DNA of 64,000 nucleotides from Heptranchias perlo (lineage: Eukaryota), in the NCBI RefSeq assembly GCF_035084215.1, contig NC_090355.1, positions 27,528,001 through 27,592,000 of the forward strand. Direction: 5' to 3'. Position numbers and translations under genes: made by a program. This document shows, one piece after another, positions 2,328 to 49,060 of this stretch (position 1 is the stretch's first letter; the number at the start of each line of letters is the position of its first letter). The notes under the pieces are model-generated. The model worked only from the letters and a program-made list of their open reading frames with translations, was not told the origin of the DNA and did no database searches.

Positions 2328-2588
<261 letters not shown>

Positions 2589-6053: not shown

Positions 6054-6798
6054 GCACAATCAGAGGGTCAGGGCTGAGTGTCAATGCTGTAATTACAGTC
6101 AGAGGACCAGGGCTGAGTCTCAGTGCTGTAAATACAGTCAGAGGACCAGGGCCGAGTCTCAGTGCTGTATTTACAGTCAGAGGACCAGGGCTGAATGTCA
6201 GTGCTGTATTTACAGTCAGAGGACCAGGGCTGAATGTCAGTGCTGTAATTACAGTCAGAGGACCAGGGCTGAGTCTCAGAGCTGTAAATACAGTCAGAGG
6301 ATCAGAGCTGAGTCTCAGAGCTGTAAATACAGTCAGAGGACCAGGGCCGAGTGTCAGTGCTGTAATTACAGTCAGAGGACCAGGGCCGAATGTCAGTGCT
6401 GTATTTACAGTCAGAGGACCAGGGCTGAATGTCAGTGCTGTAATTACAGTCAGAGGATCAGAGCTGAGTCTCAGTGCTGTAAATACAGTCAGAGGATCAG
6501 AGCTGAGTCTCAGTGCTGTAAATACAGTCAGAGGATCAGAGCTGAGTCTCAGTGCTGTAAATACAGTCAGAGGACCAGGGCTGAGTCTCAGTGCTGTAAA
6601 TACAGTCAGAGGACCAGGGCTGAGTCTCAGTGCTGTAAATACAGTCAGAGGATCAGAGCTGAGTCTCAGTGCTGTAAATACAGTCAGAGGACCAGGGCTG
6701 AGTCTCAGTGCTGTAAATACAGTCAGAGGACCAGGGCTGAGTCTCAGTGCTGTAAATACAGTCAGAGGACCAGGGCTAAGGGCCAGTGCTGCAATTAC
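6054..6798. repeat. 39-bp minisatellite, about 19 copies, in a PHYHD1 intron
   Basis: Unit TACAGTCAGAGGACCAGGGCTGAGTCTCAGTGCTGTAAA repeated head to tail with a few recurrent variants. Explains the three overlapping repetitive ORFs. Confidence 0.95.
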
Positions 6799-7599
6799 AA
6801 CAACTACCACAGATGAGTAGTTTCAGCAAGGGACTTTAATGCAGTTTGAGTGTGAAAAATGGATTTCCGACAGTGTAGTTACAGCATAGATCTGGCTCTT
6901 GCCAATTGGCAATAGAAGGCTGTTGGTGCCAGATTCAGAAAAATCCGCCGTCTATTTAGTTCAGAATCTGCCTGGAAGGGGCTGCTTTTCTTTTAAATTA
7001 TTGAGAAACCTAGTGAAGGGCCTGGGCCAATAAGGTTTTACACACACGGAAAAAAGAAACAAGCCACCAACACGTTTATGAGGTGATTCCTTTTGGGTGT
7101 TTTTTTTCCACACATTTCCTGACTCCTTGCAGTTCAACAGGTGCCCATCACCTTCTGGCATCACCAGCCGAGCCTCCATGCTGACTTCCACCTGCAGTCA
7201 CTGGACACCAGTCGCTTTTGTCCTTCCTGGAAACTGCTTGTATGTGGACATTGTGTGAGGACAGGATTAGGTTTGGTTGTGTTACAATCCATACACCCCT
7301 CCCACCCCACAGCCCCCCTTCTAACGCCACTATGTAAACTGATATTGCTTGGATGAGGTACTTGAAAGAAAACTGTTGGTGGGGGAAGAAAAAGTGTTGT
7401 TAAAACTGGATTTAACAAAATTTTTTTTTTATTTCTGTTTAGTGCTCAGCCAATATAAAATGGCAGAAACCATTTCAGTCTGATGTAGTGTGAGAACCTT
7501 TATCAGGCATCACTGCTACACCCGCTGGAATAAGTTCCTGTATTCCAGTAGTTGCAGCGACACTCAGTTACATTGATAGTAAACTTAAGAAAGACCCAC

Positions 7600-13630: not shown

Positions 13631-16099
13631 ATAGAATCATAGAAGTTTACAACATGGAAACAGGCCCTTCGGCCCAACATGTCCATGTCGCCCAGTTTAT
13701 ACCACTAAGCTAGTCCCAGTTGCCTGCACTTGGCCCATATCCCTCTATACCCATCTTACCCATGTAACTGTCCAAATGCTTTTTAAAAGACAAAATTGTA
13801 CCCGCCTCTACTACTGCCTCTGGCAGCTCGTTCCAGACACTCACCACCCTTTGAGTGAAAAAATTGCCCCTCTGGACCCTTTTGTATCTCTCCCCTCTCA
13901 CCTTAAATCTATGCCCCCTCGTTATAGACTCCCCTACCGTTGGGAAAAGATTTTGACTACCTTATCTATGCCCCTCATTATTTTATAGACTTCTAAAAGA
14001 TCACCCCTAAACCTCCTACTCTCCAGGGAAAAAAGTCTCAGTCTATCCAACCTCTCCCTAGAAGTCAAACCATCAAGTCCCGGTAGCATCCTAGTAAATC
14101 TTTTCTGCACTCTTTCTAGTTTAATAATATCCTTTCTATAATAGGGTGACCAGAACTGTACACAGTATTTCAAGTGTGGCCTAACTAATGTCTTGTACAA
14201 CTTCAACAAGACATCCCAACTCCTGTATTCAATGTTCTGACCAATGAAACCAAGCATGCTGAATGCCATCTTCACCACCCTATCCACCTGTGACTCCACT
14301 TTCAAGGAGCTATGAACCTGTACTCCTAGATCTCTTTGTTCTATAACTCTCCCCAACGCCCTACCATTAACGGAGTAGGTCCTGGCCCGATTCGATCTAC
14401 CAAAATGCATCACCTCACATTTATCTAAATTAAACTCCATCTGCCATTCATCGGCCCACTGGCCCAATTTATCAAGATCCCGTTGCAATCCTGGATAACC
14501 TTCTTCACTGTCCACAATGCCACCAATCTTGGTGTCATCTGCAAACTTACTAACCATGCCTCCTAAATTCTCATCCAAATCATTAATATAAATAACAAAT
14601 AACAGCGGACCCAGCACCGATCCCTGAGGCACACTGCTGGTCACAGGCCTCCAATTTGAAAAACAACCCTCTACAACCACCCTCTGTCTTCTGTCGTCAA
14701 TCCAATTTTGTATCCAATTGGCTACCTCACCTTGGATCCCATGAGATCTAACCTTATGTAACAACCTACCATGCGGTACCTTGTCAAAGGCTTTGCTAAA
14801 GTCCATGTAGACCACGTCTACTGCACAGCCCTCATCTATCTTCTTGGTTACCCCTTCAAAAAACTCAATCAAATTTGTGAGACATGATTTTCCTCACACA
14901 AAACCATGCTGACTGTTCCTAATCAGTCCCTGCCTCTCCAAATGCCCGTAGATCCTGTCTCTCAGAATACCCTCTAACAACTTACCCACTACAGATGTCA
15001 GGCTCACCGGTCTGTAGTTCCCAGGCTTTTCCCTGCCGCCCTTCTTAAACAAAGGCACAACATTTGCTACCCTCCAATCTTCAGGCACCTCACCTGTAGC
15101 GGTGGATGATTCAAATATCTCTGCTAGGGGACCCGCAGTTTCCTCCCTAACCTCCCATAACGTCCTGGGATACATTTCATCAGGTCCCGGAGATTTATCT
15201 ACCTTGATGTGCGTTAAGACCTCCAGCACCTCCCTCTCTGTAATATGTACACTCCTCAAGACATCACTATTTATTTCCCCAAGTTCCCTAACATCCATGC
15301 CTTTCTCAACCGTAAATACCGATGCGAAATATTCATTTAGGATCTCACCCACCTCTTGTGGTTCCGCACATAGATGACCTTGTTGATCCTTACGAGGCCC
15401 TACTCTCTCCCTAGTTACTCTTTTGCCCTTTATGTATTTGTAGAAGCTCTTTGGATTCACCTTTGCCTTATCTGCCAAAGCAATCTCATGTCCCCTTTTT
15501 GCCCTCCTGATTTCTCTCTTAACTCTACTCCGGCAATCACTATACTCTTCAAGGGATCCACTTGATCCCAGCTGCCTATGCATGTCATATGCCTCCTTCT
15601 TCTTTCTGACTAGGGCCTCAATCTCCCGAGTCATCCAAGGTTCCCTACTTCTACCAGCCTTGCCCTTCACTTTATAAGGAATGTGCTTACCCTGAACCCT
15701 GGTTAACACACTTTTGAAAGCCTCCCACTTACCAGACGTCCCTTTGCCTGCCAACAGACTCTCCCAATCAACTTCTGAAAGTTCCTGTCTAATACCATCA
15801 AAATTGGCCTTTCCCCAATTTAGAATTTTAACTTTTGGGCCAGACCTATCATTCTCCATAGCTATCTTAAAACTAATGGAATTATGATCACTGGTCCCAA
15901 AGTGATCCCTCACTAACACTTCTGTCACCTGCCCTTCCTTATTTCCCAAGAGGAGGTCAAGTTTTGCCCCCTCTCTAGTCGGGCCATCCACATACTGAAT
16001 GAGAAATTCCTCCTGAATACACTCAACAAATTTCTCTCCATCCAAGCCCCTAATGCTATGGCTGTCCCAGTCAATGTTGGGAAAGTTAAAGTCCCCTAC
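13631..16099 (-). mobile_element. 5'-truncated young CR1 LINE (end of endonuclease, RT domain, 3' UTR)
   Basis: ORFs 14894-16045 and 13934-14872 are in frame and separated by a single TGA (QHGFV*GKSCLTNL). RT motifs DFSKAFDKV, PQGSVLGP, FADD and the endonuclease motif SDH are present. Small frameshift near 13955. CTATGATTCTATG tail. Confidence 0.95.
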
Positions 16100-17462: not shown

Positions 17463-19877
17463 CTAACTGCCACCCATCTTTTCTCTTATTTCTAATGGAA
17501 GTGACTCAAAAACATATTGTTCCACCACAAGTCCACCAAGTTTCAGCATAGTGCATTGTCCTATTTCCACTGGGAGCTTTTCTAAGTGGTTTCCTTGAAG
17601 TTCCAACTGAGTTAGTTGGCTGAGCTTTGAGACCTTCCCACTGAGGGATGAGATTAAGTTATTGCTTAGCTTCAGAGTCATGAGCTTGGTACATTTGAAA
17701 AGCTGATCTGGTAGAGTTTCTATTTTATTGTGACGCAAATCCAGAAAATACAGGTTTTTGAGGTTCCCAATATCAGTTGGAATTGTGGAAATATTGTTGT
17801 TGTGTATATCTAAGTAATGCAGTTTCTCAACGCTGAAAAGGACTTTTGGTAAAGTCTCAATCTGGTTGTTTGACAAGTAAAGATACTCAAGCTTCTTGAT
17901 TAAATTAATAGTTGGAGGGATGGATTTGATCATGTTGAACCAGAACTTCAAACAGGACAACTTTTCCAGATATTGCAAGTTGATCATTTCTTCAATTTTG
18001 GTAAGATTGTTACCTTTAAGGTCTAAGACTTGAAGTTTGGACAAGGCATAAATGACATTTGGGATTTTATCCAACTCACAGTTGTGCAGTTCAAGTTGGG
18101 TCAGATTGGCCATTTTCTTTAAGATACTCAGGCTCAAGAGCTTAGTCTTATCATTGTGAATGCAAAGCTTGAGCAGGTGGAATGCAACGTCGAAGATGCT
18201 GGAGGGTATTTTGGAAAGACTCGTTTTTAGGTAAAGGACTTTCAGAGAGCGAAGTCCCTTCATGGATTCCAGTTCCAATGCTTTTCTTTCAATAGCTAGC
18301 TTTCCAGTGAGGTACAGCTCTTTGAGCTGGATCAGTTTGTAGATCCATTCAGGGATTTCATCACGATTCACATATTTAACTCCCACTTTCTTCAGTTGGT
18401 TTCTCAGCCACATCAAAGCTGATGGTGTAACTTCAGTCACACAATGTGAGAGCCAGACTTCTTCCAACTGGTTAAGTTGGATTATTTTGTTGGATATTTT
18501 AACATTACTACAAAGTTCCAGTTTTAAGACCTGTAGCTCAGTAACATCATAGACTGACTCAGGAATTCCTGATAGCATGAAGAGGTACAACTCATACTGG
18601 TCCTTCTTATTTTTTGTTAGATGTTGCTTCACCTTCTCCATAGTCCAATCGTTATTCAAACTTAACAATTTTAACTTTTGTTCACTCACCTCTGAAAGGA
18701 AAACTGCAAGACGTTTGCAATACAGAGCGTCATACTGATCAATCAAATGCAACATGAAAGCAAAGTCATTCGTTACATCAGGGATATCACTGAATTGGTT
18801 TTCTCCTCGTTTCTCAAAGGAGTATTTCTTCAGAGGTTTTTTGAAAACCCAAAGTAGTGTGTGGATACAGAGTATCCAATAGATAATCACTAAACTCAGG
18901 TACAGCAGGGCCATTTTCCCGATGAAACGAGCAGTGCTATAAGTGCAATTGAAAGTCTTGTAAAAAACCAATGATATCGCATTAGGTTCACATAAATTTT
19001 CAAAGTCAACATCATAAACATGGGCTGGAAAGTAACAAATAATAATTATGCAATGTATAGTTTTGAACAATGTTTGGCCAGCATATAATTTATAGATTGT
19101 ATCTTTCTCTTCAACATGGAGTCTGAATTTCCTTACTTTCTCAAACAAAGCTTTGGCTTGCTCTGCGTCCTTCTTGTCCAGGGATGAGCCAGATCCTTGT
19201 GCGTTTGAGTGGATGCGTGTGGGAATTTTAATGGTTGATGTAGTAGTTGTAATACTGATATTGTCAGCGCCATTGTCAGAGGCCTTATTTGGTTTTAGGG
19301 CTTCTTCCAGTTCATTGGCATCTACACAGACTGCTGTAGATAGGGCTTTGGATGTCCATGGTGACTGAAAACAATTCTGAAGGATGTCAAGAAATTGTTG
19401 CAATTTGGAGCTTGTTTTAGGATATGTGAAATAGAAGTTACTGCAGATAATCAGGACAACTGTATGGAATAAAATTAGGTAAGAAAAGAACCTGGTAAAC
19501 CAGGGAATTTGACTATAGCACATTTGATTGATGTAATGGTACTGCCAATTGTATAACTTTGTAACTTTCCCTTGGCTAATAGGAGGAAATGGATCTGGAT
19601 TACTTTGTACTCGTGGATTGGCATTGACATCAGATATTGTTGGAGTATTTTGCAGGGTTGAACTTATCTCATGTGACCTTCCTTTGGTTTTACCAACATT
19701 ATTGATCTGTGGCAAACAGAAAGTCTCATCCATGTAAAGCTGTATGCTGCAACCAAAGATAGCTAGCAACAACATGATAACAGTCAGATAATCCATGAAA
19801 GTATCCCACCAAGGTTTGAAGATCCGGAAGGCAGGTTGCTTACTTTCTAAACTTGAAAAATCAACGACTGAAAACAT
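17463..19877 (-). CDS. LRRC8 family VRAC subunit, divergent LRRC8D-like paralogue 2 (804 aa, single coding exon)
   Basis: Intact ORF: MFSVVDFSSLESKQPAFRIFKPWWD start, four TM segments, LDKKD.EQAKALFEKV, FSDIPDV.NDFAF and a C-terminal LRR array. A splice acceptor (atttcag) lies 2 nt before this ATG, so the 19 extra N-terminal residues of the ORF track are intronic. Confidence 0.93.
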   Translation of the reverse strand: MFSVVDFSSLESKQPAFRIFKPWWDTFMDYLTVIMLLLAIFGCSIQLYMDETFCLPQINNVGKTKGRSHEISSTLQNTPTISDVNANPRVQSNPDPFPPISQGKVTKLYNWQYHYINQMCYSQIPWFTRFFSYLILFHTVVLIICSNFYFTYPKTSSKLQQFLDILQNCFQSPWTSKALSTAVCVDANELEEALKPNKASDNGADNISITTTTSTIKIPTRIHSNAQGSGSSLDKKDAEQAKALFEKVRKFRLHVEEKDTIYKLYAGQTLFKTIHCIIIICYFPAHVYDVDFENLCEPNAISLVFYKTFNCTYSTARFIGKMALLYLSLVIIYWILCIHTLLWVFKKPLKKYSFEKRGENQFSDIPDVTNDFAFMLHLIDQYDALYCKRLAVFLSEVSEQKLKLLSLNNDWTMEKVKQHLTKNKKDQYELYLFMLSGIPESVYDVTELQVLKLELCSNVKISNKIIQLNQLEEVWLSHCVTEVTPSALMWLRNQLKKVGVKYVNRDEIPEWIYKLIQLKELYLTGKLAIERKALELESMKGLRSLKVLYLKTSLSKIPSSIFDVAFHLLKLCIHNDKTKLLSLSILKKMANLTQLELHNCELDKIPNVIYALSKLQVLDLKGNNLTKIEEMINLQYLEKLSCLKFWFNMIKSIPPTINLIKKLEYLYLSNNQIETLPKVLFSVEKLHYLDIHNNNISTIPTDIGNLKNLYFLDLRHNKIETLPDQLFKCTKLMTLKLSNNLISSLSGKVSKLSQLTQLELQGNHLEKLPVEIGQCTMLKLGGLVVEQYVFESLPLEIREKMGGS

Positions 19878-20084
19878 ACCTGAAATAAATGCAAAAATTT
19901 GAAGTGATATTTGAAACATACATTTTGTAGACACTTGAGATATTAGTTCTCTACATTACAACATTTGGGTTTGGGTAATTCCAGGCACGTGCATGCCATA
20001 TAGGGGTACCCACAAAAGGCTGCAAAGTAGAAGAAGGACTGAGGGCATTGTTGACAAAACACTGAAGCTAGGACAGGTCACTTT

Positions 20085-26620: not shown

Positions 26621-29131
26621 TTATACAAGGTGGTCCAGTTCAGGAAGTGACATCTTGTTGGGAATTATTAGTCTGATCTCTGGAGGAGCCTCAAGGTTAG
26701 CAGTCATATTAATTCTGATTTCTAAAGGAAGTGTCTCAAACAAATATTCATCCAATACCAGACCACTTTGTTTCAGTTTGCTACATTGTGCTACCTCTAT
26801 TGGAAGTTCTTCCAACTTATTTCCTTTGAGTTCTAGTTTTGAAAGTAGGCTACACTGCTGGATCTTCCCACTAAGGGATGAGATTAAGTTATTGTTTAGC
26901 TTCAGAGTCTTGAGCTTCTTACAGAGGAACAGCTCATCTGGTAGAGTTTCCAATTTATTGGAACTCAAATCTAGGAACTTCAGGTTTTTGAGGAATCTAA
27001 TGGCTGGAGGAATCTCAGTTAGACGATTATTGCTTATGTCTAAATGATGCAGCTTCTGAATAGTAAACAAAGTATTTGGCAATGTTTCAATCTGATTGTT
27101 TGATGCATTAAAACGTTCAAGGTTGCCGATGAAATTAATGGTATCTGGAATGGATTGGATTCTGTTAAAACTGAGATTGAAGGAGGATAGTCGGCGCAGA
27201 CGTAGCAAGCCTTCAATTTCGTCAATCGTGGTAAGCTCGTTGCCCTGGAGGTTCAACTCTTGCAGATTGGAGAGGCTAAAAATGCCCTGTGGAATCTTCT
27301 CCAGATCACAGCTTTGTAAATCAAGACGGGCCAAATTGACCATACTTCCCAAATTGTGGAGCATAGCGAGCTTGTTTTTATTATTGAGAATAGACAGCTC
27401 AACCAAATGGGGTGCAACGTACAGCACATTGAAAGGGATTTTCGAGAGGTTACTGTTGATATGAAGGACTTTCAAATAACGAAGTTCTTTTAAGAATTCC
27501 AGTTCCAACACTGATTTTTCACCATTGATGTTCCCAATCAGGTAGAGCTCTCTCAACCTGGTCAGTTTACTGATCCATTCGGGCACTTCATCGTGATTTG
27601 AAAATGTGACCGTCAGTGAGTTCAACTGGCTGCCTAAGAAGAATAAAGCGGCTGGTTTAATGGTGACCATACAGTTTACGATCGAGAGTTCTAGCAGATG
27701 GACAAGTTGGGTTACCTTGGTGTTTATGTTAATATCACTGCAAAGTTCCATCTTTAAGACCTGTATCTCAGTAACATCGTAGACCGCTTCAGGAATTCCT
27801 GATAATAGCAAAAGGTGCAGTTCTAACTGGTCCTTCTGATTTCTGATCAACTGTTGCCTCACCTTATCCGCAGTCCAGTCGCTATTCAAACTTAACATCT
27901 TCAACTTTTTCTCACTTGCCTCGGACAGGAAGATACAAAAACGTTTGCAGTACAAGGGGTCGTACTGATCGATCAGATGTAACAAGAAAGCAAAATCATT
28001 CTTTACGTTGGGAATGTCGCTGAACAGGCTTTCTCGTTTTTCGAAAGAGTATTGCTTCAGTGGTTTGCGGAAGACCCATATGATGGTGTGGAAGCAAAGC
28101 AATACATAGATAGCCACTAAAGCCAGGTAGAGCAGAAGCAGCCTCCTGAGCAAAAAGGCAACACTGAAAGTGCAAATAAAAACCCCATAACCAATCACCG
28201 ACTCTGTGCCGGGTCGACATATAATGTCAAATGCGACCGCTTCAACGTATAACGCAAAATAACTTAAAATCGTTATACACTGCAGGGTTTTTAAAATGAG
28301 TTGCCCAACGTAGAGTTTATATATCGTGTCCTCTTTCTCCACATGGACCCTGAATTTCCTTACTTTCTCAAACAAAGCTTTGGCTCGCTCTCCATCCTTC
28401 TTGTCCAGTAGCTGGTAATGTCTTTGTATAACTGGATTATTCCGTGTGATGGGTTTAGTCAATGTATCGCTGATACCGGCGACAATCGGCTTAAGTGTGG
28501 CGGCTATGCTTTTGTGCCTTTCTGGTATTTTGACGTTCATTTTACTGCTGTTCTCAGTGACTGCCAGAGAGAGGACATCGGTTGTCCAAGGTGACTCGAA
28601 ACACTTCTCTAAGATGAAGATCAAATGTTCTATTTTTGAGCTTGTTTTGGGATACTTGAACCAGAAGTTGCTACAAATCATTAACGCGACTGTATGGAGT
28701 AAAATAAAATAGCAGAAATATTTTGGAAACCAAGGTACTGCATAGAAGTAGCATGCCTGGTTGACATAGCGGTACTGCTGATGGTCCAAGTTTGCCCTCC
28801 CGTCACCTACTGCATATACAGCATCGAGGTGTGAGAATCTAATGAAGTCTGGATGAATTAATCTACCACGAATGTCAGTTACATTAGGATCCGCAATGGC
28901 GTGTCTCATGGTATAGTTGGCTTTAGTATGTATCCGGCTGTTATCAACAAATTCATCCAGAATTGGTAAACAAACAGTCTTATCCTTGTATATCTGTATG
29001 GTGCCTCCAAACACAGCGATCATCAACATGGTTATAGCCAAATAATCCATGAAAGCGTCCCACCAGGGTTTGAAGATCCGGAAGGATGGCGGGGCTTTGC
29101 TCATTGACGAAATATCTTCGAAGGACAACAT
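26621..29131 (-). CDS. LRRC8 family VRAC subunit, divergent LRRC8D-like paralogue 1 (836 aa, single coding exon)
   Basis: Intact ORF: MLSFEDISSMSKAPPSFRIFKPWWDAFMDYL, CSNFWFKYPKTSSK, LDKKDGERAKALFEKVRKFR, DQYDPLY and an LRR array. A splice acceptor (tcttctgtatttag) lies 2 nt before this ATG. Confidence 0.93.
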   Translation of the reverse strand: MLSFEDISSMSKAPPSFRIFKPWWDAFMDYLAITMLMIAVFGGTIQIYKDKTVCLPILDEFVDNSRIHTKANYTMRHAIADPNVTDIRGRLIHPDFIRFSHLDAVYAVGDGRANLDHQQYRYVNQACYFYAVPWFPKYFCYFILLHTVALMICSNFWFKYPKTSSKIEHLIFILEKCFESPWTTDVLSLAVTENSSKMNVKIPERHKSIAATLKPIVAGISDTLTKPITRNNPVIQRHYQLLDKKDGERAKALFEKVRKFRVHVEKEDTIYKLYVGQLILKTLQCITILSYFALYVEAVAFDIICRPGTESVIGYGVFICTFSVAFLLRRLLLLYLALVAIYVLLCFHTIIWVFRKPLKQYSFEKRESLFSDIPNVKNDFAFLLHLIDQYDPLYCKRFCIFLSEASEKKLKMLSLNSDWTADKVRQQLIRNQKDQLELHLLLLSGIPEAVYDVTEIQVLKMELCSDININTKVTQLVHLLELSIVNCMVTIKPAALFFLGSQLNSLTVTFSNHDEVPEWISKLTRLRELYLIGNINGEKSVLELEFLKELRYLKVLHINSNLSKIPFNVLYVAPHLVELSILNNKNKLAMLHNLGSMVNLARLDLQSCDLEKIPQGIFSLSNLQELNLQGNELTTIDEIEGLLRLRRLSSFNLSFNRIQSIPDTINFIGNLERFNASNNQIETLPNTLFTIQKLHHLDISNNRLTEIPPAIRFLKNLKFLDLSSNKLETLPDELFLCKKLKTLKLNNNLISSLSGKIQQCSLLSKLELKGNKLEELPIEVAQCSKLKQSGLVLDEYLFETLPLEIRINMTANLEAPPEIRLIIPNKMSLPELDHLV

Positions 29132-34237: not shown

Positions 34238-35685
34238 TAATAGGTACGGCACAGGAGGAGGCCATTCAGCCCATCATGCCTGTGCTGGCTCTTTGAAAGA
34301 GCTATCCTATTAGTCCCATTCCCCTGCTTTTTCCCCATAGCCCTGTAAATCTTTCCCCATAGCCCTGTAAATCTTTCCCCCACAAATATTTATCTAATTT
34401 CCTTTTGAAAGTTACTGTTGAATCTGCTTCCACCACCCCTTCAGGCAGTGCATTCCAGATCATTACAACTTGCTGTGTAAAAAAATGTTTCCTCATGTCA
34501 CCCCTGGCTCTTCTGCTGATCATCTTAAATCTGTGTCCTCTGGTTATCGATCCTTCTGCCACTGGAAACAGTTTCTCCTTACTCACTCTTTCAAAACCGT
34601 TTATGATCTTGAACACTTCTATCAAATCTCTCCTTAACCTTCTCTGTTCTAAGGCAAACAACCCCAGCTTCTCCAGTCTCTCCACATAACTGAAATTCCT
34701 CATCCCTGGTACAATTCTAGTAAATCTCTTCTGCATCCTCTCTAGGGCCTTGACATCCTTCCTAAAGTGTGGAGTCCAGAATTGAACACAATACTCCAGC
34801 TGAAGCCTAACCAGTGTTTTATAAAGGTTTAGCATAACTTCCTTGCTTCTGTACTCTATGCCTGCCTCTATTAATAAAGCCAAGGATCCCATATGGTTAT
34901 CCAACAGCCTTCTCAACTGCCACCTTCAAAGATTTGTGTATATGCACCCCCCAGGTCTCTTATTCCTACGCCCCCATTAAAATTGTACCATTTAGTTTAT
35001 ATTGCCTCTCCTCGTTCTTCCTACCAAAATGCATCACTTCACACTTCTCTGTGTTAAATTTCATCTGCCATGTGTCTGCCTATTTCACCAGTCTGTTTAC
35101 ATCCGCCTGAAGTCCGTTGCTATCCTCCACATTGTTTACTACATTTACAAGTTTCATGTCATCTGCAAACTTTGAAATTATACTGTCTATACCCAAGTCC
35201 AGGTCATTAATATATATTAAGAAGAGCAGTGGTCCTAATACTAACTCATGGGGAACACCACTGTAAACTTCCCTCCAGTCTAAAAAACAACCGTTCACCA
35301 CTACTCTCTGCTTTCTGTCCCCTAGCCAATTTTGTATCCACACAACCATTGTCCCTTAAATCCAATGGGCTTTAATTTTGCAAACAAGTTTATTATGTGA
35401 TTCTTTATCAAATGTCTTTTGAAACTCCATATACACATCAACTGCACTACTCATATCAACCCTCTCTGTTACTTCATCAAAGAACTCAATCAGGTTAGTC
35501 AAACACGATTTTTCTTTAACAAATCCATGCTGACTTTCATTTATTAGCCCATACCTTTCCAAGTGCCAATTAATTTTGTCCCAGATTATTGTCTCTAAAA
35601 GTTTCCCCACCACCAATGTTAGGCTGACTGGCCTGTAATTGCCGGGTTTACCCCTCTCCCCTTTTTTGCAATCCTCCAGTCCTCC
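34238..35685 (-). mobile_element. Older CR1 LINE fragment (RT and 3' UTR), frameshifted
   Basis: ORF pieces QHGFVKEKSCLTNLIEFF, LVLGPLLFLIYINDL..KFADD, YKTLVRLQLEYCVQFW, TRGH. A 22-nt tandem duplication sits near 34333-34376. Confidence 0.92.
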
Positions 35686-45162: not shown

Positions 45163-45438
45163 TCAGGCTTGTTCCTTGTCTGCTCGCCACAGTTGCTCCT
45201 TGACCTCAGATGGGAGTGTATTGAAGAGATCATCCTCTACTACGAGACCACTTCGCTTGAGTAGCCGGCATTCTCCGAGCTCCACAGGGAGGCACTCTAG
45301 TCTGTTTCCACGAAGCTCCAGCTGTGTCAAGCTCGTCAGCTCGCCGACTCGTGACGGCAGTGATAGCAGGCAGTTATTCCCTAGGTTTAGGGTCCGGAGC
45401 TTACGACATTGGAAGAGTTCAGGTGGCAGGGTTTCAAT
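45163..45438 (-). CDS. LRRC8A: LRRC8A (SWELL1) last coding exon (IETLPPELFQCRKL...LWRADKEQA)
   Basis: ttgcag acceptor at 45439, 91 codons plus stop. The C-terminus LWRADKEQA is diagnostic of LRRC8A. Confidence 0.97.
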   Translation of the reverse strand: METLPPELFQCRKLRTLNLGNNCLLSLPSRVGELTSLTQLELRGNRLECLPVELGECRLLKRSGLVVEDDLFNTLPSEVKEQLWRADKEQA

Positions 45439-46888
45439 CTGCAAGGTGGGAGGGGGGCAAAGAAGGGGAACAAAACGTCAAATACTTTAATTGATGTACT
45501 TGTTGGACCGAAGTAGCATTCATGAAGCATGTTAAAAAAAATACTTGTTTATTCAGAGAATATCAAAGATTTTTTGTAAACTCTCCAAGTTTTATCTTAT
45601 ATTTTATCTCATATTATACAATATTAGAAATTTGGAGGAAGTAATTTTCACATAGGCTGTAATACAGAAGACACACAATTAAACTTCAAAAGGATTAAAA
45701 AGCATTATTAAGGGCCTTCCAGCAAATCACTTGCAAATTAGTCTACTTTTGTCTTCACGAACTGTATGCATGCACAGATACATGTGCACAAAATGAATAC
45801 AGTGGAAAGTAGTATTTTTATTAGGTCCATTTGGACAGCACACATCTCCACAACCTCAAGCACTGCTTCACTGCAAGCTCATCATTGGTGGGATTTGCAC
45901 TGAGTAACTTGGGAGATTTGTTTACAAAAATAAAAAGCTGAGAGAAATATATTTTGGAAGTAGTTACTTCTAAGCCTCATTTTACTTTTAGAAAGATTAG
46001 TGGGTAGTTTCGGCCTTTATTTTATCTTTCTACTGGCAAGAGTGGAATAGGGCTAGCATGTACCTGTTTTCTAAACCTCCCACAATAACTCGCTTTCTGG
46101 GAAGGTTTAATGTGATATATCGAAACATTAATTAAATCAGTTTGAGAATCAAAAATAATGTAAGCAGTAAAAAAAAATGTTTTAAATCGACTTTAAACTC
46201 TGCATGGGCAAAAACATGTCACAGCTGCATATTAAAAAGGCTTCTACCTTTGTAAAAGTAAAGGCAAAGCCTAACTGATGTGATTACTGGCGTAACTGCT
46301 ACTTGCAATAATCTAGCAAAGATCTGGCAGCAGCTGCTTCAAGGAATGAGCAACTGTCATGCTCAACAGCTGAGGAGAGGCCTTAAAAGCCTCAACGTTC
46401 TGCAATTAGAGCAAATTTGGACTAATTCAGTTCAGGCTTGCAAAAAAAAGGTAATTGGGGAAAAAAACAGGGAAACTGAAAGGTTAAAATGTTAATCAAA
46501 AGCAAAATACTGCGGACCATATAAAGTACTTATGTCAGGTGTCCCTATAGGTACAAAACTAGAGCTCAGGGCTCCAGAGATCAAATCCCAGTCATTACAC
46601 AACAGGTTGTACTCGGGCTTCCCTTATAGTTTAACAGTCTCAACCTAGTGGAGGGAGGGAATACATAGCATACATCTTTATGAGGTAAGCAAACAGTAAT
46701 ATTAATGAAGTCCACAGGGCCTCTATCCGTGCTGTATAACTCTATGACTAGATGTTTAGATGTTAGACTGTCCTACCCTGCTGATTAAAAGATAGCATGA
46801 ATGATGGGCAGGAGAAGGCAAAATAGATGTAAATGTAGAATGAATACTGCACATATATTAATCATTATAGTCGAATGCGCACACTCAC

Positions 46889-49060
46889 CCTGTTTGCAGT
46901 AACAGCGAAATACTGCAAATTCTGAAGGAATCCAATGTCTTGTGGTATGGAGGTTAGGTTATTGTGACTCAAATCTAAGTACCGCAACTTGCGGCAATAG
47001 AAGAGCTGAGCGGGAATCTTTTCAATTTTGTTCCGGTTCAGGTAGAGCCTTTCCAAGTTGGTCAAAGTGCCAATCTGAATGGGGATATAGGCAATGTGGT
47101 TATACCACAGCTTAAGGCAGACTAGGCGCCGTAGGTGCTGGAAGCTGATGATTTCCTCGATTGTCTTCAAGTTGTTGTCCTTGAGATCGATCTCCTGCAA
47201 ATTATGGAGACTAAAGATTGAGTGTGGGATTCGTTCCAAGTCACAACGAATCAACTCCAATTCTGTCAGATTAACCATCTTCTTTAGACTATTGAGGACC
47301 ATAAGCTTGGTGCCCTCATTGTTGATAGACAATTTCTGCAGATGGACTCCAACATCCGTGACTACCTGTGGCAACTTAGTTAGGTTGCTCTTCAACCTTA
47401 AAACTTTGAGGCATTTGAGTTCCCGCAAGCCATCAATCACAATGTAGCGATTGTTCTCTGCACTCAGATTCCCAGTTAGGTGAAGCTCTTCAAGGTTCTT
47501 CAAGCTGTAGATCCACAGAGGAATCTCTTTGATGTCTGTAAACTTAATATGTAGTGACTTCAGGTGTTCTCGTAAGAAGGCAAGAGCTGGTGCCTCAATC
47601 TTTGCTGGTGTGTGATACAACCAGAGTTCTTTGAGGTTGGTAAGTTGGGCAATGATCGGAGGAATGGTGACATCCAGGATCATCTCCAGTTTGAGCACTT
47701 CTAGCTCAGTCAGGTCAAAGATGGTGTCTGGGATTCCACTCAGCATGAAAAGGTGGAGTTCCAGTTTGTCCTGAGAGTTTTTCATGATCCTCTGCCGGAG
47801 TTTCTCCAGGGTCCATTCATTATTCAGATTGAGCTGGCGTAATTTGTTCTCACTGACCTCAGATAGAAAGACAGCAAAACGCTTAGAGTACAACGGATCG
47901 TACTGATCAATCAGGTGCAACATGAAAGCAAAATCATTCTTGACATCGGGAATGTCACTGTAGCTGCTCTCTTCCCGAATGGACTCGAATGAATACTTTT
48001 TCAGAGAACGCCGTAGCATCCACCAGAGTGTGTACATGCAGATGAGTCCATAGACAATCACTAAACTAATGTAAAAGGATGCAAGGATCTTGAACAGTGT
48101 AGCTAATGGATGAGCGCACTGATACACACGGTATCCTGTGAGGTTCTGAATGTCCACTATACAGGACACATCAAATTTTATATCGTCAACATAATAAAGT
48201 GAATAACTAATAATAAGAGCAAATTTGATTACTTTGATAATAGTCTGTCTCATGTAGAGTTGGTAAACTATATCCCCTTCTTCTACATGGGTGCGGAATT
48301 TCTTTACTTTTTCAAACAGGGCTTTAGCTTGCTCTCCCTCCTTCTTATCCAGTACACCTGTTTCCGAGCGATCAACTATTCCCTGTTCGATGCGAGATTT
48401 TGTTCTTTGCAGCATAGGTACGCTGGCCTCCACGTCCTCACTCACTGAGGAGGATTTCTTCACCATTGAGCCATTCATTTTAACAAATGACTGTTTTGGG
48501 TCGCTCTCCTCCACCACAGTTTCAGATAGCGCCCGTGTTGTCCATGGTGAGTCAAAACATTTCAGAAGGATGGATACAAAGTGTTCCAGCTTTGAGCTGG
48601 TCCGAGGATATTTGAACCAGAAATTGCTACACACTAAGAACACCAGTGTGTGCAGAAGTACAAGGTATGGGAAGTATTTTGCAAACCAGTGAAGTTTATT
48701 CTCATAGCATACTGCATCCACATAGTTGTACTGGTGCCGGTCCAAGTCATACTGGATACCCGTGGGTTCACTGGAAAATGGGGGAAGGACTGAAGATGGT
48801 GGGAGGGATGTATTTGGGTATGCAGTGGTTGGGGGCTCTGTGGGTTGTGGCTGTACAGGTTCAACACACGTATTGTTGATAACCCACTTGCAGGGTAAAC
48901 AAATCATTTTGTCCTGTGTGACTTGCAATGTGCCACCAAACACTGCTATCATAAGCATTACGATGGAGATGTAGTCCGTAAACACGTCCCACCATGGCTT
49001 CAAGATGCGGTAAGCAGGCTGGGTGTCAGCAAAATATCGTAGTTCTGTTACCGGAATCAT
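46889..49060 (-). CDS. LRRC8A: LRRC8A (SWELL1) main coding exon, obligatory VRAC subunit
   Basis: MIPVTELRYFADTQPAYRILKPWWDVFTDYIS...YDLDRHQYNYVDAVCYE...VTANR then gtgagt. 724 codons, acceptor 7 nt before the ATG, 815 aa in total with the last exon. Confidence 0.98.

Follow-up and report, generated by a model that had tools for sequence, protein, structure and literature searches.

Paralogue 2, one of two tandem LRRC8 paralogues in the window of Heptranchias perlo DNA analysed here (the whole stretch of 64,000 nucleotides), is, as judged from its sequence, an intact LRRC8D-type subunit gene conserved across the cartilaginous fishes. Its family membership suggests that the product likely co-assembles with LRRC8A, and we propose, with a probability of roughly 0.45, that it does so as a minority subunit of a channel whose predicted pore is wider and less anion-selective than that of LRRC8A/D. 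In the proposed mechanism, a short uncharged residue at the axis-facing position 103 would widen the filter, while acids at 50 and 51, with no Lys at 49, would present an acidic side chain to the vestibule in either flip of the linker and offset the R103 ring of the partner. Aromatic residues at 102 and 104 would repack the helix tips and the inter-subunit cleft, possibly holding neighbouring R103 side chains aside, and a basic outer rim would mainly retune inactivation and halide preference. The outcome would be a pore through which neutral, zwitterionic and cationic osmolytes leave in bulk, and not one that binds a particular osmolyte among them.

Gene structure, ancestry and distribution

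The window contains three LRRC8 genes on the minus strand, followed by an exon of PHYHD1:

45163..49060, minus strand: LRRC8A, likely to be the partner, coded by exons at 46889-49060 and 45163-45438, with DLDRHQY kept and Gln at K98
26621..29131, minus strand: paralogue 1, tandem sister of paralogue 2, its charges arranged the opposite way (KDK at 49-51 and Arg at 107)
19880..19900, minus strand: pyrimidine tract and AG acceptor, two bases 5' of the start codon of paralogue 2, read from the sequence
17463..19877, minus strand: coding sequence of paralogue 2, an LRRC8D-type subunit of VRAC, the volume-regulated anion channel, 804 aa in one coding exon, with a pannexin-like pore domain and an LRR domain
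2385..2519, minus strand: PHYHD1 exon, the downstream neighbour and a synteny marker, assigned by homology

The start Met of paralogue 2 (19875-19877) lies two bases past the splice acceptor; a start at 19919 was rejected, since the 14 codons upstream of this Met are the splice-acceptor tract. A read contig from run X1 shows 0 differences from the window over 19543-19826, and because this run may represent the window's own sample, the match argues solely against an assembly error. Together with the frame that is open across the orthologues and with the conserved sites, it led us to reject both an assembly error and a pseudogene. Read contigs from runs that are only guessed to be RNA cross the acceptor into the intron, and as no splice joint is listed for the gene, these runs are uninformative on its expression. 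Elsewhere in the window (6056-6799, 13934-15859 and 34302-34892) we noted a 39-bp tandem repeat in 19 copies, which creates a spurious 264-aa ORF, and other ORFs that by eye resemble fragments of LINE reverse transcriptase.

The pannexin-like four-transmembrane domain PF12534 is matched over its whole profile (1-346, E 4.8e-105), and the C-terminal LRR domain is indicated by the profile scan, the AlphaFold2 model and Foldseek, in which LRRC8 chains occupy all of the 50 top rows listed. Both the EL1 strand (E52-56) and the helix EL1H (H110-121) are present in the model, and the extracellular cysteines C54, C120, C296 and C311 are retained in 23/23 orthologues. Searching with the protein recovers a tight group of sharks, rays, skates and Callorhinchus at 64-82% identity, after which the matches fall to 50% or less, except for paralogue 1 at 51%. 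Our working set of 23 paralogue 2 sequences comprises H. perlo, 19 named species (Callorhinchus twice) and two further records, all with an intact gene and with a chimaera among them; the counts exclude a fused Narcine model, three more models that are fused, one paralogue 1 that is truncated and some duplicates. The Narcine model (P0163) joins paralogues 1 and 2 in the order seen in H. perlo and, although probably a gene-model artefact, confirms the tandem order.

Three trees, all built by a quick method with SH-aLRT support only, join paralogues 1 and 2 (SH-aLRT 100), each with a chimaera member, and place them as sister to LRRC8D plus the D-like gene that lies beside LRRC8E. Paralogue 2 is therefore outside the LRRC8D clade proper, and H. 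perlo has its own LRRC8D (L015). The B-C-D cluster of this species is on contig C9, and paralogue 2 is on C34 between LRRC8A and PHYHD1. Gene structure agrees with the trees and hence with the D-type placement: D, the D-like gene and both paralogues have one coding exon, C- and E-type genes are interrupted by an intron after codon 46, and in LRRC8A the intron comes late. We infer that the genome duplications of early vertebrates left a third D-type copy, and that the tandem duplication which made two paralogues of it preceded the divergence of the chimaeras. Altogether, H. perlo has ten LRRC8 genes on C34, C9 and C40 (respectively A with the two paralogues; B, C, D and one extra; E, D-like and one extra), compared with five in humans. 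Two divergent LRRC8 genes (L019:1439-3769, minus strand, and L020:1228-3546, plus strand) form a clade of their own with newt and lamprey proteins, are best matched by a frog protein and each lie near AKAP95-family genes; L020 retains Arg at 103 (DLDREQY), and a lamprey member of this clade (P0208) has Tyr at the 104 site.

The nearest named relative is LRRC8D (PDB 6m04, 9dx7, 9t5m; 46-50% identity), with which paralogue 2 shares the D-type clade, the single coding exon, an uncharged residue at 103 and the lack of Arg at 8. It differs from LRRC8D in belonging to a separate lineage, the true gene being on another contig, and in reading KLYNWQY for NLDFQQY (loss of the acid at 102 and of the aromatic residue on the axis, Trp at 104) and MDE for KDQ at 49-51. 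LRRC8A (SWELL1; PDB 7xzh, 6g8z) has the same fold and is the adjacent gene on the same strand, but paralogue 2 lacks its R103 (within DLDRHQY), D100, D102, H104, K51 and late intron, and an origin by local duplication of LRRC8A was rejected together with the common clade that it implies (AU test, p 3.4e-63, 17 rows). LRRC8C and LRRC8E resemble it in being accessory subunits whose filter residue (Leu) is small and uncharged, and differ in keeping D102, Q104 and K51 and in the intron after codon 46. The earlier note had taken LRRC8A as its baseline and listed the replacement of R103 among the changes. As the gene is D-type and LRRC8C, D and E also lack R103, LRRC8D is the proper comparison, against which the loss of R103 is no distinction, the more so as the site varies among the orthologues.

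No orthologue outside the cartilaginous fishes was found among the best 120 of 956 profile hits, a search in which the score gap is partly by construction, since the profile was built from the cartilaginous-fish genes themselves. Likewise there was none among 150 listed of 305 representatives, which include three invertebrate-level matches (21-27% identity) with paralogue 1 or 2 as their nominal best match. A fast-evolving or fragmentary copy could have escaped both searches. The orthologues are automatically annotated in RefSeq as "volume-regulated anion channel subunit LRRC8D-like" (e.g. XP_055516023.1 of little skate and XP_007900958.1 of elephant shark). Literature on LRRC8 in sharks, skates and other cartilaginous fishes, mainly open-access main texts, yielded no description of paralogue 2 or its pore motif; the 2012 phylogeny of Abascal and Zardoya may cover extra paralogues.

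The rewritten helix tip and the charge along the pore

The register relative to mammalian LRRC8A (K98-Y99-D100-L101-D102-R103-H104) was anchored on L101, Q105-Y106 and C113, and positions 51, 44 and 6 were counted from the Met at 19875-19877. The relevant elements of paralogue 2 are:

19539..19559, minus strand: KLYNWQY, tip of helix EL1H (LRRC8A D100-Y106), from codon reading and alignment register; codons K 19557-19559, L 19554-19556, Y 19551-19553, N 19548-19550, W 19545-19547, Q 19542-19544, Y 19539-19541
19551..19553, minus strand: Tyr at the D102 site (the lid; residue just before the helix); Y15 H7 F1 in 23 orthologues
19548..19550, minus strand: Asn at the R103 site (the filter residue that faces the axis), which varies among orthologues: N10 I9 V2 Y2, with Thr in Narcine
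19545..19547, minus strand: Trp at the H104 site, close to the cleft between subunits; 23/23 orthologues, 0/101 family-wide stretches
19557..19568, minus strand: basic outer rim K-V-T-K (sites 97-100); 97 is R/K (23/23), 100 mostly K (17/23), 98 never basic
19725..19736, minus strand: Y48-M49-D50-E51, acidic TM1-EL1 linker under the filter; 49-51 are KDQ in LRRC8D and QDK in LRRC8A
19725-19727, minus strand: Glu at the K51 site, from codon reading
19746..19748, minus strand: Ser at the T44 site; 22/22 orthologues, a conservative change
19860..19862, minus strand: Asp at the E6 site; 20/21 orthologues, a conservative change
19425..19433, minus strand: Y-F-T where TM2 ends in W-F-K in the rest of the family; all 23 orthologues have C/Y and T

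All the substitutions listed in the earlier note (Lys at D100, Tyr at D102, Asn at R103, Trp at H104, Glu at K51, Ser at T44, Asp at E6) were thus read correctly, in codons and in register. They differ in weight. The conservative exchanges at 6 and 44 deserve less attention than they had been given, and E6D was judged minor as a change of selectivity: altering E6 in one subunit type scarcely shifted PI/PCl in the results of PMC6120214 that we consulted. Nor is Lys at the D100 site (K17 Q3 S2 H1) peculiar to this gene, as it recurs in teleost LRRC8D (18/134 LRRC8D sequences). As for conservation, the literal KLYNWQY occurs in only 2/23 orthologues, but a core of the form x-L-[Y/H/F]-x-W-Q is kept across sharks, rays and chimaera.

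Two sites of this core and one in the linker set paralogue 2 apart. The D102 site is aromatic in 23/23 (His counted) and acidic in all 161 other sequences of the alignment, a set dominated by LRRC8D (134 D, 18 paralogue 1, 9 others), in which Trp never occurs at 104 and an acid never at 51. Site 51 itself is E11 D8 N4 (acidic in 19/23, the Asn being that of stingrays and mobulids), and site 49 is M21 L2. In the wider set, made up of 101 stretches that could be aligned among the 150 representatives listed (of 305), Trp104 is absent (0/101) and 102 is acidic in 70/101, so that Trp104 is the unique mark of the gene and the loss of D102 has precedents. These include divergent invertebrate-level matches, a rodent fragment with His that is called B-like merely because it resembles B, and the D-like gene in perch-like fishes (Val; P0201, P0358 and P0361 read HLVYQQY).

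Of 295 family-conserved columns, 12 show a radical change in 23/23 orthologues, and two of these are among the four columns that the family conserves in the helix tip D102-Y106. The hypergeometric p for this is 0.009, on analyst-chosen thresholds and one window; with all 40 lost columns counted, p rises to 0.09. Because 359/798 columns and 10/13 Trp columns are invariant in the clade, the invariance of Trp104 is in itself unremarkable. A second fixed radical change lies away from the neck, where the family NFWFKYP reads NF[C/Y]FTYP in 23/23.

The loss of 40/295 family-conserved residues, among them W143 and K145 where TM2 ends, could also mean that paralogue 2 is a weakly conducting or inhibitory modulator, an intracellular protein or a subunit paired mainly with paralogue 1, in which case the motif would say little about the selectivity of plasma-membrane VRAC. 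In the same direction point the slower iodide quench of LRRC8A D102A (bioRxiv 10.1101/331207, consulted in part), the absence of an N-glycosylation sequon from the EL1 loop (window 19560-19715, minus strand) in 7/8 orthologues checked, and a comparison with low-depth contigs of organism B, where 18/30 changed codons are non-synonymous (listed differences only), a hint of modest constraint. Nevertheless, the frame has stayed open since before the chimaera-elasmobranch split, identity among the elasmobranch orthologues is 78-82%, and Q105 (23/23), Y106 (21/23) and the four cysteines are retained. We regard this alternative as very improbable.

Charge was counted by segment from the sequence, and the values are not a three-dimensional potential map. 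Under the filter (sites 46-53) the net charge is -1.82 in paralogue 2 (n=22), as opposed to -0.01 in D (n=134), +1.06 in paralogue 1 (n=18), 0 in shark LRRC8A and between -1 and +1 in nine single sequences, which makes paralogue 2 the most acidic of all groups compared. At sites 96-106 the shift goes the other way: with two Asp removed and one Lys added the neck gains charge, and no group compared has a more positive outer rim (+1.74, against +0.37 for D, -0.61 for paralogue 1 and -1 for shark LRRC8A). The N-terminal 14 residues differ little (-1.33, -1.99 in D, -1.0 in paralogue 1, -1 in shark LRRC8A). The "loss of positive charge" announced in the earlier note therefore holds under the filter and fails at the outer rim, and the positive rim works against reduced anion selectivity. 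Paralogue 1 mirrors these charges and has Arg at 107 in 17/18 and Y8 I7 F2 H1 at 103. In H. perlo LRRC8A (46889-49060, minus strand), Gln replaces the mammalian K98, a residue tied to inactivation and iodide selectivity (PMC6363415).

Pore geometry and the competing readings

According to the portions of the pore literature on which we draw throughout this section, residue 103 is the single axis-pointing residue of each subunit in the solved structures, and A:D channels are 4A:2D with the two D subunits adjacent (PMC12795811). Residue D102 sits above R103 like a lid (bioRxiv 10.1101/331207), and residues 101/102 and 104-106 line the inter-subunit cleft (PMC8831520, PMC13596092). Neutralisation of R103 raises Na+ permeability (PMC6363415, PMC12182595), LRRC8C, D and E have Leu or Phe at this site (PMC12182595), and Phe143 of LRRC8D makes for a wider filter and, in homomers, builds an aromatic cage (PMC7229184, PMC13586245). 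Channels that contain LRRC8D pass uncharged and cationic solutes (PMC6451053). No current came from the 8A-8D(EL1) chimera (PMC6028502); the 8D-8A(IL) homomer is functional. In the linker, D50 and K51 face the pore alternately in an LRRC8C-based structure (PMC10049205), so that with D50-E51 or D50-D51 in paralogue 2 both orientations would be acidic. In the passages of the pore literature consulted, including PMC13596092 and PMC10049205, we found no effect of K51 charge on selectivity. Disruption of the lipid gate by Tyr48 was considered and rejected, as LRRC8A T48Y and T48W are wild-type-like (bioRxiv 10.1101/2022.07.31.502239).

The AlphaFold2 model of paralogue 2 has a mean pLDDT of 71.6, with averages of 53 for residues 101-110 and 80 for residues 111-120, and its EL1H begins at residue 110, the equivalent of 103. 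A complex prediction of LRRC8A 15-415 with paralogue 2 15-410, made without alignments and without folded controls, scored 0.01 and counts neither for nor against assembly.

Cartilaginous fishes use urea and methylamines as osmolytes, and the restriction of the gene to this lineage would suit a cation-pi site in which the added aromatic residues select methylamines (TMAO, betaine, choline) at the constriction, as the earlier note had supposed. Sites 96-108 do contain about five aromatics (His counted), versus about three in D and paralogue 1, and Trp104 is fixed. Moreover, choline, a quaternary ammonium, permeates skate VRAC more than Na+ or Cs+ do (PMC6363415). However, no aromatic has been added on the axis: the Phe/Tyr that LRRC8D has there (LD[F/Y]QQY; F76 Y58 of 134) gave way to N, I or V in 21/23 orthologues, and it is LRRC8D that already has the aromatic cage (PMC13586245). 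The aromatics at 102 and 104 flank the axis, one or two subunits per hexamer cannot make a ring, site 102 is His in skates and chimaera (7/23), and the basic rim would repel cations. A cation-pi site is thus very unlikely, and the displacement of the aromatics off the axis fits a repacking better than a cation-pi ring.

Repacking also figures in an alternative which we find doubtful but deserving of attention, namely that paralogue 2 assembles with LRRC8A and selects much like LRRC8D, the aromatic residue at 102 and Trp104 being a compensating packing pair that alters inactivation, stability or blocker sensitivity and not permeation. The geometry is compatible with it, as only 103 points at the axis and, with the D subunits side by side, 102 and 104 could meet across the interface. 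Reversals of charge at K98/D100 affect voltage-dependent gating (PMC6363415), and the negative shift at 46-53 (-1.8) is almost balanced by the positive one at 96-106 (+1.4 over D). On the other hand, the acidic pair at 50/51 is inside the filter and would be expected to outweigh charges on the rim, and paralogue 1 has shifted in the opposite direction at the same sites, which suggests selection on charge.

We give most weight to the wider and less anion-selective pore, although this reading has difficulties of its own. The R103 ring should still prevail in a channel that has four or five LRRC8A subunits, and altering the minority subunit alone often had little effect, e.g. E6C in one subunit (PMC6120214) or T48D in D alone (PMC12795811). 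The Asn at 51 in 4/23 orthologues and the loss of D102 in the B-like rodent and D-like perch sequences also count against it.

Skate VRAC and the significance of the gene

According to the part of the review PMC6363415 consulted, VRAC of skate hepatocytes has P(Na,Cs)/PCl of about 0.2 and Pcholine/PCl of 0.55, versus 0.02-0.04 in most cells. The little skate possesses an orthologue of paralogue 2 (XP_055516023.1) with KLHNWQY and with MDD at 49-51, and since it thus combines the gene with an unusually high choline permeability of hepatocyte VRAC, a direct test exists. It is tempting to consider the two paralogues as an electrostatic pair of a third LRRC8D lineage, paralogue 1 basic and paralogue 2 acidic under the filter with an aromatic collar, in which paralogue 2 would render VRAC permeable to cations and methylamines and so cause the choline and Na+ permeability of skate hepatocytes. 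We consider this extended scenario unlikely; any one of the nine other LRRC8 genes that H. perlo has might account for the skate result.

How VRAC subunits choose between chloride and organic osmolytes or drugs is an open question in the field, and the A:D structure paper calls for mutagenesis with uncharged substrates (PMC12795811). If selectivity proves D-like, our finding comes down to an unusual motif in a lineage-specific paralogue. Paralogue 2 is a natural variant that alters 102 and 104, positions near-fixed in LRRC8D, and reverses the charge at 51, its tandem sister having shifted in the opposite sense. In addition it provides, in an established laboratory species, a named and cloneable candidate for an oddity known since 1996, the weak anion selectivity of skate hepatocyte VRAC.
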